From: a virus | Lineage: Duplodnaviria > Caudoviricetes | DNA: 64,000 nt | Virus record (IMG/VR): IMGVR_UViG_3300011962_000024 | Span: 18,466 to 82,465 of that record | Direction: 5' to 3' (one strand) | In this document: positions 16,228 through 47,887 of the stretch, piece by piece | Layout of the letters: every line of letters begins with the position of its first letter | Numbering within the stretch: the stretch's first letter is position 1 | Translations under genes and position numbers: made by a program | Notes under the pieces: generated by a model | Seen by the model: the letters and a program-made list of their open reading frames with translations, nothing else | Told to the model about the DNA's origin: nothing | The model's database searches: none

Positions 16228-19200
16228 CAGCCCCCGATGCCGAATTCAAGGCCCTTGACCCCATTGGGGTGATAAGCCGTGATCACCTTGTTGTTGATGG
16301 TGATCCTCCCCTCGCCTGGCAGCGATCCATTCACCTCGAACTCATTGGTCACGAAGTTGATTCGAATCCCCTGCTGCCCCTTGACGTAATCCGGTGACCG
16401 CAGCTCCCCGGTCACAATCAGGTTCACGATATCGGCCTGGTTGAACACGGCCGAGTTCGCGAATATCTGCCCGCCCTGAACCACGAACGGAGTGATCAGT
16501 TCGCCGCTCGACTCATCCAGGATGGCGAAACGCTGGGCGAAGGCGAGAATCTGCGCCTCCTGCTCCTCGCCTTCCACGCCGATCGCAAGGCCAGCCATGA
16601 CGGTGCGGCCGTCGACTGTTGTCTGCGTCTTGATGGTAGTGAGCGCGGAGGCCTTGCCTTCAAAATCAACGAGCGCCTGCGAGGTCTGTTGAACGGCGGC
16701 CGAGGTGTCGCCGACCGTGGCATCGAGCTGGTTGATCTGCTCGGCCATGGCCATGTTCTCGGTCGCCACCGTCCGGGCTACCTGGGTGATGCGCGCTGCC
16801 GAGTCCCACCCCTTCAATGCATCCGCCAGCTCGCCTTCGCCGTCATCGTCCCGGTAAGCCGCCTGCAGAACGGCCAAGCTCGAGGCGGTGGCCGTCACGA
16901 TCCCATCGAGCACGCTGATGCCAGCCGTGTTCTCCGCGACCTGAACAGCAAGACCGTTGGCGGTTTCGACTACCTGGCCGACGTCCATCCAGAGGTTGTC
17001 GTTCGGCGGCGCGTTGCTGCCGTCCGGTGCTGCTGGGACGTCAACCAGGGCCTGGTACAGCCGGCGGCCATTGGGTCCGCCGCGAACCGCATCGCCCTGT
17101 GCGTAGGCTTGGTCGGGGTCATAGGCCAGCGCATCAACGGCCTGCGATACGGCCTCTTGGATGCGCTCGTTGACCGAGCCCGGGCCGTCGCCGTCGATCA
17201 GATCGATTCGCTCGAGCAGGTCCTGGCCGAGCTCGGACTCGGTGATCTGGCCGGTGATGTAATCGAGGATCGCAGACGCATCGGCGCTGCTCTGCCCCAT
17301 CACCCAGTCAGACCATGGGCCGATGTTGCCGGTACGGTCCACCAGCCGAGCCCGGAACCAGAACGTCACGCCGGCAGCAAGACCGGTCATGGTATGGGTG
17401 TTGGCTGGGTAGGCGTAGTCGCCCAGGTGCAACGCGTCCTCCTCGCTCTGCGCCGAACCATACTGGATCTCGGTGCGGAGCGTGTCCTCTGCGCCGGCCG
17501 GAAAGCCCCACTCCAGCCGGATGCCGAATATCTCGGGCACTGCGTTCAGGAATGCCACAGCCGGCGGCGTGCCGGACTTGCCGGCCAGCTCGATCGCCTC
17601 GCTGTAGCCCCAAGGACTGCTCACATCCAGGCTGTTCAGCGCGCGAACGCGAATTTGGTAGGTGCCGGCGTAGATGCCGACCACGTCCAGCTCGGTCCCG
17701 CCACTGCGGCCAGCATAGACCCAGGCCGCATCGCCCCGGCGCCACTCCACGTCGTAGCGCGTTGCGCCGGGCGCGACATCCCACATGACCGTCATCGTCG
17801 TGACAGCCATGGTCTGCTCCAGCATCCAGTCGCTGATCGCGCGGATGTTTTCGGGCGCGGCCTGAACACTCGAGGGGATGGACGTGACCGGGCGCTGGCT
17901 GATGATCGCACCGGTATCGACCGCTGCGTGCTTCCCCTCGACGTACTTGCTTGCGGTGATCGAATATTCCAGCGGACCAGACTCGCCAATGCTGACGATC
18001 CGGTAGCGTTGCGCGGCCAGGTTGGGCGTTTCCCAGGCCCATACGCTTTGCGCCACGGGGGCAGCGTCGAAAGATGGAGAGACGGTGATTTCGGCGCCAT
18101 CCACCAGCAGCACTTCGCGTGTCTGGGCAATGCCGTCCGGCATGATGCAGGTCAGTTCGTCGCCGGCCTGAACGCCTTCCACCTTGTCTGCGACGATGAC
18201 GCTAGCCGTTGCGGACCGCGCGCGACCGCCGATACGGCGACCAGCCCGGGCATTGTCCGCCACGCGAATGATCTGTCCAGGGCGGGCGCGGATTCCGTCA
18301 AGGCCAACTGCAAATGTAACCGTCTCGGTTTCCAGCAGATTGGTCAGCAGCGCCCAGCGCCCGGCGCGCTGAGCCTGCCCCTGCGAGGTACAGCCAAGAG
18401 CAGAGATCTCTACCGTCTGCACACCAAAGCGCGCCACAGCATCATCGTCCTGCACGTACTCGATCTTCGCCCGGTACATGTCCGCCGGATCGTTCCAGCT
18501 GACAAGCGCGGCGCTGTAACGGGTCGAGCGCTTGCTGCCCTTATAGGAAAACTTGCCCTCTTTGACGTTGGCGTTGGTGTAGGTGTAAACCGGGTCGGCC
18601 GGCATGTCGGCGGAGACGATCGCCTGGCCGGCGCCCCAATACGTGATGCCGCGAAAGATAGCCGCAATGTCCTGCAGCGCTTTGTAGGCGTCAGCGCGCT
18701 TCTGCAGGTAGAGGTTGCAAGTGAAGCGAGGCTCCTGGCCGCCCATGCCGTCTCCGACCATCTGGTCGCAGTATTGCGCGATCTGGTACAGCCCCCACTT
18801 GTCCACCTGGCCCGCGTCGATGCGGTCGCCAAGCCCATACCGCGGGTGCAGCAGCAGGTCGTAGTAGACCCATGCCGGATTGTTGCTGTACGCGAGCTGG
18901 AACGTGCCGTCCCAGATGCCGGAGTAGGTGCGAGTCTCGGGCTCGTAGTTGCTCGGCACACGGATGATTCGCCCGCGCGCATGGTAACCCCGGCGCGGAA
19001 CTGCGCCGCCGAACGACTCGGCGTCGAACGAAACGCCGATGACGGCCGAGTTCGGATAGCGGAACTTGGCGTCGATGATTTCGGTGATCGACTTGATGTT
19101 CACTGTGTCGGCGATGGCCGAGGATGTGCTGTTCGCGGTCAATCGGCGAACGCGAATACGCCAGCCGCCGGAACCTTCCGGCAGGTCGATACGCACCGAT

Positions 19201-42829: not shown

Positions 42830-43730
42830 TGCGCTTACCTCCCTTCTGGCGGATGCGCTCAGCGGCTTCCTGTGCGGCGTTGATGTTGGCCTGGGTCTGC
42901 TCGATCTGGCGGGCAGTGGCCCCGTTGATCTGGCGTCCCGTCTGCCATTGGGTGTGGAACGCCTCGGCCTTGGCGAGCAGGTCGTTCAGGTTGTGGCAGC
43001 CGTTGATCAGGCGTGCGTCGTTGACGGTCAGGTAGAACGCGGCCACCTGTGGCGCAGCGTCTGCCCCTAGGCGGTCGATCAGCTGGCCGACCTGCCCCCC
43101 GGCTTTGGCATTCCAGACAGGCCAGGTGCCGTAGCGCTTGCGGTAGGCGAAGGCGTAGTTGGCCCAGGTACGGAAGGTTTTGCAGGTCTGGTCTTTGGGG
43201 CCCGGCATGTCTGCTGGGATTTCAACGCGTGGCCTCACCGGCTCGAACGGAACGACCTGACCCGTGGCGACCGAGGCGTCAGCCTGGGGCGGCAATGGTT
43301 CATTGACCGGTTCATTGACCGGTTCATTGACCGGTTCAAGAGAGTGACTGGTTCTGGGTGCAGCTCCTGCACTACCCCCTGGTGCAGGAGATTCACTAGG
43401 GGGTGCAGCTCCTGCACTACCCTGGTGAACATGCTGCACTACCCCTGGTGCAGGAGATTCACCACCAAGGGTCAGGAAATACACGTTCGACGAGTTCCCC
43501 TTAGGGCCTCCCTTCCTGATTTCCTTGCGGAGCAGGCCGGACTCGCAGAGCGCGGCAATGTGGTTCATCACCGACCGCTTGCTGATCTCACATTGATCGG
43601 CGATATGCTGGTACGAGGGCCAGCACTCGCCCTGATCGCTGGCGTTGTCGGCCAGCTTGATCAGCACCAGCTTGCGCAGTGGATTGCCGACGCGAATCTT
43701 CATCGCGGCGACCATAAGTCCCATGCTCAC
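42816..43730 (-). CDS. Replication initiator (O-like, N-terminal HTH)
   Basis: KLVLIKLADNASDQGECWPSYQHIADQCEIS; internal iteron-like repeats. Confidence 0.88.
   Translation of the reverse strand: MSMGLMVAAMKIRVGNPLRKLVLIKLADNASDQGECWPSYQHIADQCEISKRSVMNHIAALCESGLLRKEIRKGGPKGNSSNVYFLTLGGESPAPGVVQHVHQGSAGAAPPSESPAPGGSAGAAPRTSHSLEPVNEPVNEPVNEPLPPQADASVATGQVVPFEPVRPRVEIPADMPGPKDQTCKTFRTWANYAFAYRKRYGTWPVWNAKAGGQVGQLIDRLGADAAPQVAAFYLTVNDARLINGCHNLNDLLAKAEAFHTQWQTGRQINGATARQIEQTQANINAAQEAAERIRQKGGKRNAFL
43297..43462. repeat. Putative replication origin iterons inside the O-like gene
   Basis: GGTTCATTGACC x3 (43297-43332), plus GGTGCAGCTCCTGCACTACCC x2 and CCTGGTGCAGGAGATTCAC x2. Confidence 0.72.
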
Positions 43731-44530
43731 GCGGCACCCCCGGCGACAATCCTCACCAATTCGGCAAAACGCTCGACATACCAGTGAGGCTGCGTTTCGC
43801 GAGGAGAATGAGGGCTGGTGAGGTTTTTGCCATAGCGCTGCCCTTTCTCGGTGACAGCCCAGAAATGGACGGTTTCGCGCTTGGCGTTCACGCGGGACAT
43901 CTGCTTGATGATCCCGGCGTCGCGCAGCTTCCAGTTAAATGGCGCAGCTGCGCACTTTATGCCGTGCAGCTTCAGCAGTTCGGTCAGCGGCTTAGTGGGC
44001 ATGGAACCGCCGCCGTCACCAGCATCTGGCGCCGCATCTATCGCATAGGCAGGCAGAAAGCTTGGCTCCAGACCATTGTTCTCGGCGATCTTGGCCAGCA
44101 TCAGAATCTGGCTGGACGGTGCCGGCTTCAGCAGGCGAGTGAAGCACTCCATGATGGCGATCTCGCCGATCACCTTCGTTCCATTCGACGTCACGGCGAC
44201 GCGTGACGCTTCCTGCTGCTCAAGTTCGCGCCAGCGGCGGATCACCTTCATCCGCAGTGCGGCACTGTATCCGGTCAGCAGGCAGTCGGTATGCTCGCGG
44301 TCCAACAGGTACTCGGTCTGGCGGCGCCCGCGACCATCCAGGTAGATATGCTCAAAACTGAGCACATTGGCTTTCAGGTCGGCAAGCATCGTCAGCACGT
44401 CGCGCTTCACGTTGGTGTGGCGCTTCCCGGTGAGCTTGGCGATCTCGCGAGAGGACATAGTCCGAGTCACGGAATCGTCCGGCGTGAAGCCACGAGACGC
44501 AGGGTTGATCGTAGTGTTCAGGTTTTGCAT
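43727..44530 (-). CDS. Rha-family regulator with antirepressor-like C-terminal domain
   Basis: TMSSREIAKLTGKRHTNVKRDV, C-terminal FWAVTEKGQRYGKN; start trimmed to MQNLN. Confidence 0.82.
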   Translation of the reverse strand: MQNLNTTINPASRGFTPDDSVTRTMSSREIAKLTGKRHTNVKRDVLTMLADLKANVLSFEHIYLDGRGRRQTEYLLDREHTDCLLTGYSAALRMKVIRRWRELEQQEASRVAVTSNGTKVIGEIAIMECFTRLLKPAPSSQILMLAKIAENNGLEPSFLPAYAIDAAPDAGDGGGSMPTKPLTELLKLHGIKCAAAPFNWKLRDAGIIKQMSRVNAKRETVHFWAVTEKGQRYGKNLTSPHSPRETQPHWYVERFAELVRIVAGGAA

Positions 44531-44728
44531 ACTGAGAACCTCAGGCTTTTGCAAAGAATCAGCCCGCCCGCCAGCGGGCTTTTTCATGTCTGTAATTCCG
44601 GTACTGGATAGCCGTACAGCTAAACCAGACCAATACCGCCGCTTCGCTTGCCTGCCTAAGATGGAATCCATGGAAACCACTGACAGGGACGTTGCTATGC
44701 AAAGACGATCACCCCAACACCCTGCCGC

Positions 44729-44932
44729 TCATGCCGCCCGGCTCTTCGGCTGCTGGGAAGGGAACGGGCGCAGCTCTTCGGCGGTGTGCGTGCCGTCGGC
44801 ATGCTCAATGACATAAATCTCGCGGCCGACACGAAGCGCTTTGTTCAGCGCGCCCTGCGTGAGACCGAGGGTCTTGGCAGCCTCGGTCTGGCCTTTGGCC
44901 TCAGCGAATTCTTTAAGAGGAATGCGGCGCAT
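44729..44932 (-). CDS. cro: Cro-like repressor
   Basis: GQTEAAKTLGLTQGALNKAL...FPS, divergent from cI. Confidence 0.9.
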   Translation of the reverse strand: MRRIPLKEFAEAKGQTEAAKTLGLTQGALNKALRVGREIYVIEHADGTHTAEELRPFPSQQPKSRAA

Positions 44933-45037: not shown

Positions 45038-45958
45038 ATGAAAAAAGACCGACGCCCTTTGCAGGAGTGGGAGAAGCAGGAGTGCGCCTCGCTGAAGGCG
45101 GAGTTCTTGGCTTACAACCTATCCCCGCCCAATGGAAAAAAGCTCACTCAGGAAGAGGCTGCGCACGCTCTTGGAATGAGCCAGGGGACTTTCAGCAGTC
45201 ACCTGAACGGCTATCGAGCCCTCAATAAAGAAATGGCTGCGACCCTCGCAAAGATGCTCGGTATCCCTGTCTCGCGGTTCAGCAAAAGGCTGGCAGAAGA
45301 GATTCAGGCCATGTCCGAGGCGGCCGGAATCAACGAGGCTTCGGCTGGCGCGGCCCGAGACGCAGAAAGCGGCTCAGCATCTTCTGCCGAACTGGTGCTC
45401 GAGATGCTTGCCAAGGCAGGCAAGCTCACACCCGAAGGTCGCCAGGCCATTCTCTCGGCAGTCGATGAGGCGTCTGATTCCCCTCCTCCCAGTAACGTCA
45501 TCACGCACGACTTCTCCGGCCTGCGCGTGCGCCCGGAAGAAATCCTGATTCCTCAGTACGACGTCCGCGGCGCGATGGGCCACGGCCAGGTGCCGGCCGA
45601 CTACAACGAAGCCATCCGCAACCTAGTCATTCGCGAGGATGTGTTGCGCGAAAAGGGCGTGACCTACACCTCCCCCGAGGCGCTGGCGATGATCACCGGC
45701 TGGGGCCAGAGCATGGAAGGCACGATCAACGACAAAGACCCGGTCATCGTCGACCGCGGCGTCAACGAGTTCATCGGCGAAGGCGTCTACGTGCTGACCT
45801 GGCATGACCTGCTTTACATCAAGCGCGTCCAGCAGAAGGACGCAGAGCACTTCTGGCTGATATCGGACAACCCCAAGAACAAGGACCTCGAAGCGCGGAT
45901 CGACGACGTGACGATCCATGCAAAGGTGCTGTTGGTCTGGAATGCGAGGAAGGTTTGA
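45038..45958 (+). CDS. cI: CI-like repressor (HTH + S24 autopeptidase)
   Basis: TQEEAAHALGMSQGTFSSHLNG; GAMG cleavage region, GQSMEG Ser, YIKR Lys. Confidence 0.93.
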   Translation: MKKDRRPLQEWEKQECASLKAEFLAYNLSPPNGKKLTQEEAAHALGMSQGTFSSHLNGYRALNKEMAATLAKMLGIPVSRFSKRLAEEIQAMSEAAGINEASAGAARDAESGSASSAELVLEMLAKAGKLTPEGRQAILSAVDEASDSPPPSNVITHDFSGLRVRPEEILIPQYDVRGAMGHGQVPADYNEAIRNLVIREDVLREKGVTYTSPEALAMITGWGQSMEGTINDKDPVIVDRGVNEFIGEGVYVLTWHDLLYIKRVQQKDAEHFWLISDNPKNKDLEARIDDVTIHAKVLLVWNARKV

Positions 45959-46146
45959 CAAGGCTCGGAGGGAGCGTCGAGGAGAAGTATCTTCCTCCGA
46001 CTGCAGCGAATTCGGATGAGCGACCGCCCTGTTATGCTGGGCCTATAGCATGAGCCGTTGAGCAACTGCTTGAACAAAAAGGAATTTTTTGGGGGTGAGA
46101 TGAGAGCTCTATCACTTTCGGCCTGCAGGAGCATGTGCTGGGCGGA

Positions 46147-46180
46147 TTGCGCGCCAAGGTGCAACTACTTTATAGTTGCA
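46147..46180 (+). promoter_or_regulatory. Promoter with overlapping palindromic operator for the TA-chaperone operon
   Basis: TTGCGC-18-TATAGT; TGCAACTA-N5-TAGTTGCA covers the -10. Confidence 0.62.
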
Positions 46181-46205
46181 ACCTTCGCGCTTTGCAGAGG
46201 TCCCA

Positions 46206-46460
46206 ATGAGCAAGCTTGATAAGCTCATCGCGAGATTCCTCTGCGAGCCTCCGCCAAAAGATTTCAGCTGGGATGAACTCGTGAAGGTCATGAGGTCGTA
46301 CGGCTACAGGGAGCTTGAAGGCAAAGGATCTCGAAAAAAATTTGTGAACAGTGTCAATCACAAGATTTTGCTGCATAAACGACACCCTGATAGCACATTA
46401 CTTGACTATCAGATCGAGGACGTAAAACACGGACTCAGACAGGAAGGGCACATTAAATGA
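46206..46460 (+). CDS. hicA: HicA-family toxin
   Basis: FSWDELVKVM..GY...GKGSRKKF...LLHKRHP; start trimmed to MSKLD. Confidence 0.88.
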   Translation: MSKLDKLIARFLCEPPPKDFSWDELVKVMRSYGYRELEGKGSRKKFVNSVNHKILLHKRHPDSTLLDYQIEDVKHGLRQEGHIK

Positions 46461-46897
46461 GCAAACAGATTCTTGAGCATAAAGGATTTCAGGGATCGGT
46501 GGAGTTCTCTTTGGAGAACAACATCCTTTTTGGAAGGATACTTCATATAAACGACGTCGTGAGTTATGACGCCGATACGGTTAGCGAAATTTATGAAGCA
46601 TTCAAAGAAGCTGTAGATGACTATATAGAAACATGCGCAGAACTTGGCGTTGAACCTGACAAGCCATATTCAGGAACGTTCAATATAAGAATTGGAAGAA
46701 AACTCCATAGAGATATTGCGCAACAGGCCACCCGCGAAGATAAGAGCATTAATGACTTCGTCAAAGACGCAATAGAATGCCATTTGCACGGACGGCACCA
46801 GCATATTCATCATCACTACCCCGCGCCGGCAGGCTATGAAGCAGATTATTTCATACCGGAGAACGTCAACCGCGTTCCTCTGAGGCTTGTACAATGA
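46457..46897 (+). CDS. hicB: HicB-family antitoxin with C-terminal extension
   Basis: HKGFQGSVEFS...FKEAVDDY, RHH-like YSGTFNIRI, then a ~36-aa tail. Confidence 0.9.
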   Translation: MSKQILEHKGFQGSVEFSLENNILFGRILHINDVVSYDADTVSEIYEAFKEAVDDYIETCAELGVEPDKPYSGTFNIRIGRKLHRDIAQQATREDKSINDFVKDAIECHLHGRHQHIHHHYPAPAGYEADYFIPENVNRVPLRLVQ

Positions 46898-47349
46898 ATC
46901 TTTTCGACCTGCGCCTTATAAGCATTAGGACAATAGAATTAAAAGGACAAGCATTTAACATATCTGCCGAGGATAACGCGGGTTACGCAGGTAGGTTTCA
47001 GGCGGATATATTAGATGACATATCCGGCATTTCGGTGGGTGATACGCTCACAGCTCAATTATCTTTCTTTGCGCGCGATGAAGATGAAGCCGACCCATTT
47101 TTCTCCATTACTGTTTCTGGAGTGTTAGAGATTGTAGGAGAGGCAGCAGTTCCAGAAATCACCGGGGTGCACGGCTCCTTCCAAGTAGCAACTTTCTTGT
47201 TTCCTTATTTAAGAAATACTGCCAAACCGCTACTAGAACAGCTTGGCGCCACCGATGTTGATTTCCCTCTGCACCTCCCGCCGCCCCCGAATGTGGCGCC
47301 TGAAAAGAGCAAAAGACGCAAAACCAAACAAGTGACGCCGCGAACCTAA
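46894..47349 (+). CDS. SecB-like chaperone
   Basis: Acidic 151 aa; ATFLFPYLRNTAKPLLEQLG resembles the SecB ILFPYARE helix; ATGA overlap with hicB. Confidence 0.72.
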   Translation: MNLFDLRLISIRTIELKGQAFNISAEDNAGYAGRFQADILDDISGISVGDTLTAQLSFFARDEDEADPFFSITVSGVLEIVGEAAVPEITGVHGSFQVATFLFPYLRNTAKPLLEQLGATDVDFPLHLPPPPNVAPEKSKRRKTKQVTPRT

Positions 47350-47377
47350 ACGGTTTACTAATGCGCAAGGAAGCGCC

Positions 47378-47887
47378 ATGTACCGCATCACTCTCGCCCT
47401 TCTTCTGCTGTCCTCCCCTGCCCTCGCTGCCAATCTCGAATGCCGCGTCATCGGCGTGGCCGACGGCGACACCCTCACCTGCCTGACCGCCGACAAGAAG
47501 CAGGAGCGCATCCGCCTGCGCGGCATCGATGCACCGGAACGCAAGCAGCCATTCGGAGAGCGATCACGGCAGAGCCTGTCCGACCTGGCGCACGGCAAGC
47601 AGGTGACCATCCACTGGACCAAGCGGGACCGCTGGAAGCGCATCATCGGCGCCGTGTGGGTTGAGCCTACCGATTGCCCTGGCTGCGGTCATACGCTCGA
47701 CGCCGGCCGCGCGCAGCTCGCCTCGGGCATGGCCTGGTGGTTTCAGCGCTACGCCAGCGACCAGCCCCGAGAAGAACGGAACGCCTACGAATTCGAGCAC
47801 ACCGAGGCGCGTGCCCGATCTGTTGGGCTTTGGCCAGATCCCCAACCGGTGCCGCCTTGGGATTGGCGCAGCGGCAAGCGGCCGTAA
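47378..47887 (+). CDS. Exported thermonuclease (SNase family)
   Basis: Signal peptide; VADGDT, RIRLRGIDAPE, DRWKRIIG, GMAW, GLW...PPWDWR. Confidence 0.9.
   Translation: MYRITLALLLLSSPALAANLECRVIGVADGDTLTCLTADKKQERIRLRGIDAPERKQPFGERSRQSLSDLAHGKQVTIHWTKRDRWKRIIGAVWVEPTDCPGCGHTLDAGRAQLASGMAWWFQRYASDQPREERNAYEFEHTEARARSVGLWPDPQPVPPWDWRSGKRP

Follow-up and report, generated by a model that had tools for sequence, protein, structure and literature searches.

What is the function of an AT-rich, three-gene cassette located directly behind the repressor gene of a temperate phage? The question is raised by positions 46147 to 47349 of a 64,000-nucleotide stretch of viral DNA (Caudoviricetes), referred to as the window, which extends from position 18,466 to position 82,465 of the 82-kb IMG/VR record IMGVR_UViG_3300011962_000024. 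The cassette encodes a HicA-family toxin, a HicB antitoxin with a C-terminal extension, and a third protein for which comparison of models and profiles pointed to the SecB chaperones. We conclude that the cassette is very probably a toxin-antitoxin-chaperone (TAC) module belonging to the HicAB type, in which the toxin-antitoxin (TA) pair is addicted to the chaperone. The best overall explanation, which we hold to be reasonably probable, is that this HicAB-type TAC is a moron inserted after cI and that its most likely role is the defence of the lysogen against superinfection.

Layout of the cassette and fold of the third protein

The three open reading frames (ORFs) of the cassette lie on the same strand (+), and both gene junctions are ATGA overlaps. 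The hicA gene (46206-46460) encodes 84 amino acids, hicB (46457-46897) encodes 146, and the third gene (gene 3; 46894-47349) encodes 151. The GC content of positions 46150-47350 was 0.41-0.49 versus 0.58-0.67 in both flanks. These ORF coordinates and base compositions bear out the initial annotation of this DNA, made from the sequence alone, which had described three AT-rich genes joined by ATGA overlaps beside the repressor. HicA matched the Pfam family PF07927 (E = 5.7e-8; 33.2 bits for a gathering cut-off of 27) and PHROG 8887, annotated as a toxin (E = 4.8e-27). A single-sequence search of the PDB gave no match for HicA; the profile of its subfamily aligned with the structures of HicA from Burkholderia pseudomallei and Streptococcus pneumoniae. 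HicB matched PF05534 (E = 6.2e-20; 71.3 bits for a cut-off of 21) and, over residues 4-119 of 146, the 119 positions of PHROG 9151, annotated as a HicB-like antitoxin (E = 1.1e-44).

The AlphaFold2 (AF2) model of the third protein, with a predicted local distance difference test (pLDDT) score of 85.6 and a predicted template modeling score of 0.76, displayed four successive strands (b1-b2-b3-b4) followed by two helices, the first short and the second long. Comparison with SecB by Foldseek, which had been proposed in the initial annotation as a check, returned 19 matches at E ≤ 1e-3, all of them SecB or SecB-TA, the first being Rv1957, the TAC chaperone of Mycobacterium tuberculosis. VIA-align, a method independent of Foldseek, gave Z scores of 9.3 for Rv1957, 8.7 for Escherichia coli SecB, and 7.9 for a SecB-like domain of unknown function, the next unrelated structure scoring 5.1. 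In the ESM Atlas, SecB was present on 23 of the 30 nearest clusters, with a structural template modeling score of about 0.6; the remaining seven had no family in common, and one of them was automatically named SecB. Single-sequence searches of PHROGs and of the PDB with gene 3 produced nothing meaningful. At the profile level, the gene 3 family placed Haemophilus influenzae SecB on top of the PDB matches (E = 0.077), in a collinear alignment over 108 positions in which the family motif LFPYlR (FLFPYLR in the window) sat on LFPYaR of the H. influenzae protein. The SecB-like FLFPYLR helix that had been recognized by eye thus has its counterpart in the LFPYAR of an established SecB. The Pfam SecB model (PF02556) was matched weakly by 4 of the 16 members of the family, with a best E value of 0.0021. 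According to these models and profiles, the predicted fold of the third protein is that of a very divergent SecB. The lack of a SecB fold, which the initial annotation had named as grounds for refuting its proposal, was thus not observed.

Housekeeping SecB from E. coli and H. influenzae (PDB 1QYN, 1FX3, and 1OZB) and the gene 3 product have in common a four-stranded sheet, a long helix, and the LFPY.R start of that helix. The two differ in sequence (16-23% identity), in genetic context (a TA operon versus secB-gpsA), and in the nature of the C-terminal tail. In E. coli and H. influenzae, the acidic tail of SecB binds the zinc finger of SecA (PDB 1OZB). This acidic tail is absent from the gene 3 product, in which the residues following position 132 are Pro-rich and basic (KRRKTK). 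The family is rare. A word-indexed search of 5.8 billion proteins retrieved two proteins, one of which was the window's own, and an exhaustive search by profile, covering 1.84 billion representatives, delineated 18 clusters at E ≤ 0.001. Two of 401 genomes searched, in the genus to which the genome of locus L004 (a Pseudomonas record) belongs, contained a member. A profile scan of genome contigs yielded no relative and a scan of metagenomes yielded one; no match to gene 3 was obtained by tblastn in GenBank phages or PLSDB plasmids. Among sequencing runs, no RNA data set was listed, and one DNA run contained 6% of the sampled words.

Linkage of the antitoxin tail to the chaperone gene

In the AF2 model of HicB, an N-terminal domain composed of four strands and a helix (residues 5-63) is followed by a ribbon-helix-helix (RHH) domain (about residues 74-111) with helices at residues 81-93 and 98-111. 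The top six Foldseek matches of this model in the PDB were all B. pseudomallei HicB, with a best E value of only 0.01, and neither the single sequence nor the profile of HicB matched a PDB entry. The C-terminal extension of HicB (residues 111-146; positions 46787-46894, + strand) was modeled with pLDDT values of 45-55, with a short helical turn at residues 114-117 and no regular structure beyond residue 118. Alignment of 101 HicB homologues revealed a bimodal distribution of lengths, with either 0-16 or 36-86 residues past the end of the RHH domain. Canonical HicBs comprise 107-125 residues and lack the tail, which is 36 residues long in the HicB of the window. The tail of about 36 residues that had been reported past the RHH domain is confirmed by its position at residues 111-146, by the end of the PHROG 9151 match at residue 119, and by these two length classes.

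The tail is rich in aromatic and His residues. Three blocks (GRHxExHHHY, YExxF, and LRxVQ) were conserved in the subgroup of 26 sequences that includes the window, in which G112, R113, H114, H118, and H119 were invariant; the window's tail contains four aromatic residues, namely Y121, Y127, Y131, and F132. The tails of other clades differ in sequence, and nearly all of them start with an alternating hydrophobic-His run (IHFHF, VHYHF, LHLHIH, or IHNHIHYH). The chaperone addiction (ChAD) region of characterized TACs is a disordered C-terminal extension of the antitoxin that docks into the chaperone through its aromatic residues (preprint 10.1101/2024.02.24.581848). The HicB tail, which is conserved, specific to its lineage, and predicted to be disordered, fits the description of a ChAD by its sequence.

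The association between tail and chaperone gene was examined in 153 HicB loci (designated by L numbers) that were gathered from genomes and viral contigs and parsed. All 16 loci with a tail of the window type carried a member of the gene 3 family, in each case with a 4-nt overlap with hicB. A Stutzerimonas-type contig contains a gene 3 product with 67% identity in the order repressor-HicA-HicB-gene 3, and two IMG/VR contigs were organized in the same manner. More generally, an abutting ORF on the same strand was present in 119 of the 123 loci in which the HicB tail comprised at least 30 residues. Starting from gene 3, jackhmmer, run with lenient inclusion because the database was tiny, reached 63 of the 104 unique downstream ORFs, each of the 63 being located behind a long-tailed HicB, and none of the 9 ORFs located behind short-tailed HicBs. 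Only 3 of 51 more distant downstream ORFs reached the Pfam SecB model at E ≤ 0.01, indicating that the group is largely invisible to standard annotation. The loci found from the chaperone side, by the genus survey and the metagenome scan, also had hicA and hicB upstream. In every retrieved locus with a member of the gene 3 family, HicA and a long-tailed HicB were encoded directly upstream, and a CI-like repressor gene usually came just before them. Among the loci retrieved, tail and chaperone gene co-occur strictly.

A second set of long-tailed HicBs (L009, L025, L026, L032, L033, L043, L045-L047, L058, L060, L062, L137, L144, L148, L149, and L151) was followed by shorter ORFs of about 87-120 residues. 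The SecB-like profile did not reach these ORFs, which also had no match to Pfam SecB. The Pfam families detected in the ORF set to which they belong (HipA, deaminases, and DUF6941) fit only its longer ORFs. The short ORFs may encode a different partner protein or may result from incorrect start or frame calls.

A promoter-like site was read upstream of hicA on the + strand (46147-46176), with TTGCGC at 46147-46152, a spacer of 18 nt, and TATAGT at 46171-46176. An operator-like palindrome, TGCAACTA-N5-TAGTTGCA, occupies positions 46160-46180, with 8-nt arms that are 100% complementary, and spans the -10 hexamer TATAGT, as noted when the sequence was first read. In 11 of 12 related loci, the core of the palindrome (TGCAACT-N7-AGTTGCA, centered on TATAGT) was located at -46 from the hicA ATG; in the twelfth (L086), the core was shortened to 6 nt and located at -42. 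A TTGC element 17-18 nt upstream of the TATAGT hexamer was kept along with it in all 12 loci, in which the flanking DNA could not be aligned. The fixed distance from the hicA ATG within otherwise unalignable DNA indicates that the palindrome is not due to chance. The designation of the site as a promoter is based on the reading of the hexamers and on their conservation, since a consensus promoter scanner made no call at 46147-46176. A palindrome over the -10 hexamer resembles the autoregulated promoter of a TA operon with an RHH operator, to which HicB presumably binds.

SecB-like chaperones have been described in association with HigBA, MqsRA, and HicAB pairs, all of the HicB examples being of the RHH type (Sala 2013, PMC3581621). 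The HicAB-TAC of Methylomonas methanica MC09 (Mmet-TAC) is among "four functional TAC systems" in which the TA pair depends upon the chaperone; its HicAB pair is toxic unless the cognate chaperone is co-expressed, and ChADs are transferable (Bordes 2016, PMC5105189). In both Mmet-TAC and the window, a single operon encodes HicA, a HicB of the RHH type that bears a ChAD or ChAD-like extension at its C terminus, and a SecB-like protein. Compared by their features rather than by their sequences, they differ in that the window has a chaperone from a small clade falling below the Pfam SecB model and a phage-borne location after cI. The cassette is a strongly divergent member of an already known class, the HicAB-TACs, from a host group and a chaperone clade that have not been studied so far. 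The proposal of a HicAB-based TAC made in the initial annotation stands in its structural part, i.e., the SecB fold, the conserved disordered tail, and the co-occurrence of tail and chaperone. The novelty that it implied was overstated, as HicAB-TACs had been described and were functional (PMC3581621, PMC5105189); what holds is that no anti-phage phenotype of any HicAB-TAC was reported in the literature searched. A survey of HicA contexts that proposed a role in defence (PMC10865869) and a review of HicAB systems (PMC11594946) mention neither SecB nor a chaperone.

Insertion site and neighboring genes

The cassette is located directly downstream of a gene encoding a CI-like repressor (45038-45958, + strand) composed of a helix-turn-helix domain (PF01381; E = 1.1e-6) and an S24 peptidase domain (PF00717; E = 1.1e-18), which also matched PHROG 4, annotated as a transcriptional repressor (E = 1.5e-37). 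In 9 of 13 related loci, the cassette was directly preceded by a gene for a homologue of this repressor or of that of L001. A Cro-like gene (44729-44932, - strand) faces the repressor gene and adjoins a gene for an anti-repressor (Ant)-like protein (43727-44680, - strand; PHROG 63, E = 7.6e-23); homologues of the latter gene flank the cassette region in related loci L004, L086, L090, L092, and L093. Right after the stop codon of the repressor gene, a 10-nt inverted repeat, TCGGAGGGAG / CTTCCTCCGA, with a 16-nt loop (45965-46000) is present without a T-run. It could insulate the cassette from transcription of cI.

The similarity of the window to L001 and L003 does not extend past the stop codon of gene 3. 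In these two loci, gene 3 is followed by a GC hairpin with a T-run, i.e., an intrinsic terminator, and then by unrelated genes. Based on the end of similarity and on the position of this terminator, the mobile unit consists of the promoter/operator and the three genes, for a total of about 1.2 kb. The cassette is a horizontally mobile unit of this size in the moron slot of a temperate phage of the Pseudomonas/Stutzerimonas type.

In the window, this terminator is missing, and a homologue of staphylococcal nuclease (47378-47887, + strand; PF00565, E = 3.7e-15) with a signal-peptide-like N terminus begins 28 nt past the gene 3 stop codon. The nuclease gene may therefore be transcribed by read-through from the cassette. 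The proximity of a secreted-type nuclease, with no terminator in between, suggests another role for gene 3, as a holdase for a client other than HicB. It would then assist the export of the adjacent nuclease, or the folding of a virion protein of the phage itself, and its association with hicAB would be fortuitous. This explanation is contradicted by the terminator and the unrelated genes that follow gene 3 in L001 and L003, by the constant 4-nt overlap of gene 3 with hicB, by the finding of its family only behind long-tailed HicBs, and by its basic tail, which is unlike the acidic tail by which export SecB binds SecA. We consider a non-HicB client to be very improbable, and a function of gene 3 in the export of the neighboring nuclease was rejected on the same grounds.

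Proposed phage defence, its alternatives, and relatives in coliphages

Two types of TAC with an established anti-phage activity provide the models for the function of the cassette. HigBAC from E. coli NT1F31 is an anti-phage system that is located in the slot downstream of cI and triggered by phage lambda gpV, which competes with the ChAD (preprint 10.1101/2024.02.24.581848). HigBAC and the window have in common an RNase-type toxin (by family membership in the case of the window), an antitoxin with a disordered tail bearing aromatic residues, and a SecB-like chaperone. HigBAC contains a HigBA pair (RelE fold) and a HigA ChAD of 96 residues, whereas the window, which is known from its genes alone, contains a HicAB pair and a tail of 36 residues. 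CmdTAC, or PD-T4-9 (Vassallo 2022; PMC11618068), is an anti-phage TAC that also has a SecB-like chaperone and differs by its toxin, CmdT, an mRNA ADP-ribosyltransferase in place of HicA. A RexAB-type system of Pseudomonas putida prophage P1 occupies a slot comparable to that of HigBAC. The defence role of the cassette is mainly argued from its location in the after-cI slot that it shares with HigBAC and rexAB-type systems, which is a positional argument only.

By analogy with HigBAC of M. tuberculosis and E. coli and with the Methylomonas HicAB-TAC, HicB dimers would block HicA and, at the palindrome, repress the operon. The tail would render HicB prone to aggregation and proteolysis unless held by a tetramer of the SecB-like protein. 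In an infected lysogen, a nascent structural protein of the incoming phage could occupy the chaperone in competition with the tail; diversion of the chaperone would lead to the loss of HicB, the action of HicA on RNA, and growth arrest. On balance, we lean toward an anti-phage function of the cassette exerted through such a titration of the chaperone.

Several observations weigh against this interpretation. The third protein itself matched no family in Pfam (including SecB at E ≤ 0.1) or NCBIfam. The only defence model touched in PADLOC was PD-T4-9_C, with a marginal E value of 0.037 for gene 3, and none was touched by HicA or HicB. A two-gene HicAB system of a P. putida prophage, HicAB2, is a functional TA pair that did not protect against the phages tested (PMC12894663). 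The dN values (nonsynonymous substitutions) of the chaperone, 4 to 19 times those of HicA and HicB within the same operon pairs, speak for the interpretation; because dS (synonymous substitutions) was saturated, however, dN/dS ratios could not be used, and positive selection is indistinguishable from relaxed constraint or recombination. Finally, G41-S42-R43 of the window's HicA falls on the GS(H) of structures 6g26, 4c26, and 5yrz in the profile alignment, so that an Arg (S42-R43, positions 46330-46335, + strand) is found where the canonical G-S-H motif has its catalytic His. The residues aligned with R43 are H24 in B. pseudomallei HicA and H36 in S. pneumoniae HicA. The His of this motif (H24 in BpsHicA, H28 in YpHicA3, and H36 in StpHicA) is needed for toxicity or RNase activity (PMC11594946), and the RNase activity and toxicity of the window's HicA are therefore not to be assumed.

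The replacement of the His raises the question of whether HicA is catalytically dead, in which case the cassette would comprise a HicB-based transcriptional regulator and a free SecB-like holdase. The alignment of R43 with two residues that are both required for toxicity (PMC11594946) speaks for such a loss of function. However, Arg is the commonest residue at this position in the whole 84-residue subfamily (56% versus 24% for His among the HicA ORFs of loci L001-L156), P61 is near-invariant, S42 and H60 are invariant or nearly so, and the tight coupling of toxin, antitoxin, and chaperone genes is retained. The dN of HicA was low in close pairs (0.03-0.05), indicating strong purifying selection, and we do not read the gene as decayed. 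The dead-toxin explanation appears quite improbable.

Comparison of the window with L001 showed 89% identity for HicA and 92% for HicB versus 67% for the gene 3 product, corresponding to dN values of 0.052, 0.042, and 0.209, respectively. In a second close pair, the dN values were 0.028 for HicA, 0.093 for HicB, and 0.538 for gene 3; the misframed hicB pair of L091 and L092 was left out of this comparison. Within the third protein, the sheet half (residues 1-93) was less conserved than the helix half (residues 94-132), with 62% versus 85% identity. With the HicB core accounted for, tail and chaperone distances still co-varied (partial Mantel r = 0.35; p ~0.001; n = 14), which is weak evidence given the relatedness of the sequences. 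Rapid evolution of the chaperone is compatible with a sensor and also with relaxed constraint or module shuffling.

Another proposal is that the cassette is a chaperone-addicted TA system for prophage maintenance or the response to stress. Loss of the prophage, or proteotoxic stress, would lower the amount of chaperone or of HicB, and HicA would arrest the cell. In their first descriptions, TACs were modules that respond to stress (PMC3581621, PMC5105189), IncI2 plasmids carry HicAB as an addiction module according to one report (PMC11878559), and the failure of HicAB2 to defend P. putida (PMC12894663) is in line with such a role. Against it, HicAB2 had no role in the stability of the P. putida prophage (PMC12894663), the cassette is found in the slot of the exclusion systems of other temperate phages (rexAB and HigBAC), and the chaperone is the fastest-evolving part of the cassette, an observation that is not predicted from addiction alone. 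We consider a primary function in prophage maintenance or stress response to be unlikely and retain the defence of the lysogen as the preferred explanation.

Cassettes of similar anatomy are present in isolated lambdoid coliphages. In mEp234 (L160; JQ182732), the gene order is cro, PR/PRM, cI, hicA (84 residues), hicB (152 residues), a 141-residue "hypothetical protein," PL, and N. The three genes, with a long-tailed hicB and an abutting third ORF, extend from 2248 to 3378 of L160, between cI and PL, which is the position of rexAB. HK106 (JQ086369) and mEp506 (EF120460), in which hicAB is also annotated, matched the HicB of the window equally well. These three phages resemble the window in anatomy and slot (cI, an 84-residue HicA, a long-tailed HicB, and an abutting ORF). 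The third ORF differs from gene 3 in its motifs (WFFEN...LPWS, with no basic tail, versus LFPYLR...DFP..LPP with a basic tail) and in its SecB homology, which is less well supported; it is annotated only as hypothetical. Jackhmmer joined the mEp234 ORF to the gene 3 family, hhalign of the window family against the enterobacterial clade gave a P value of 1.4e-4 and a probability of 52% over 113 collinear columns, and the profile of the clade had no sequence match in the PDB. The enterobacterial clade is probably a sister of the window's chaperone family, the hhalign link being suggestive and inconclusive. The mEp234 cassette resembles an unannotated TAC in a phage that is tractable in the laboratory.

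A broader conjecture can be offered tentatively. Long-tailed HicBs and SecB-like proteins invisible to Pfam, including those of mEp234 and HK106, could form a widespread, mostly prophage-borne family of anti-phage sensors. The fast-evolving sheet face of the chaperone would then be the receptor for phage proteins, the beginning of the tail with its alternating His residues (IHHHY, IHFHF, or VHYHF) would be a shared docking motif of the strand type, and HicA would cleave RNA with a noncanonical Arg-containing active site.

TACs are currently the clearest case of a chaperone acting as the sensor of an immune system, and phage defence has so far been shown only for TACs based on HigBA and CmdTA. 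The window and about 60 related loci place HicAB-TACs in the repressor-adjacent slot of temperate phages of Pseudomonas-like hosts, with a likely sister clade in enterobacterial phages. Most of the chaperones of this type escape the Pfam SecB model, and annotation pipelines and defence finders therefore display only a two-gene HicAB system followed by a hypothetical protein. The replacement of His by Arg poses a small enzymological question as to how this HicA subfamily works. As a probable sister clade, the cassettes of mEp234 and HK106 would be convenient for testing in E. coli K-12.

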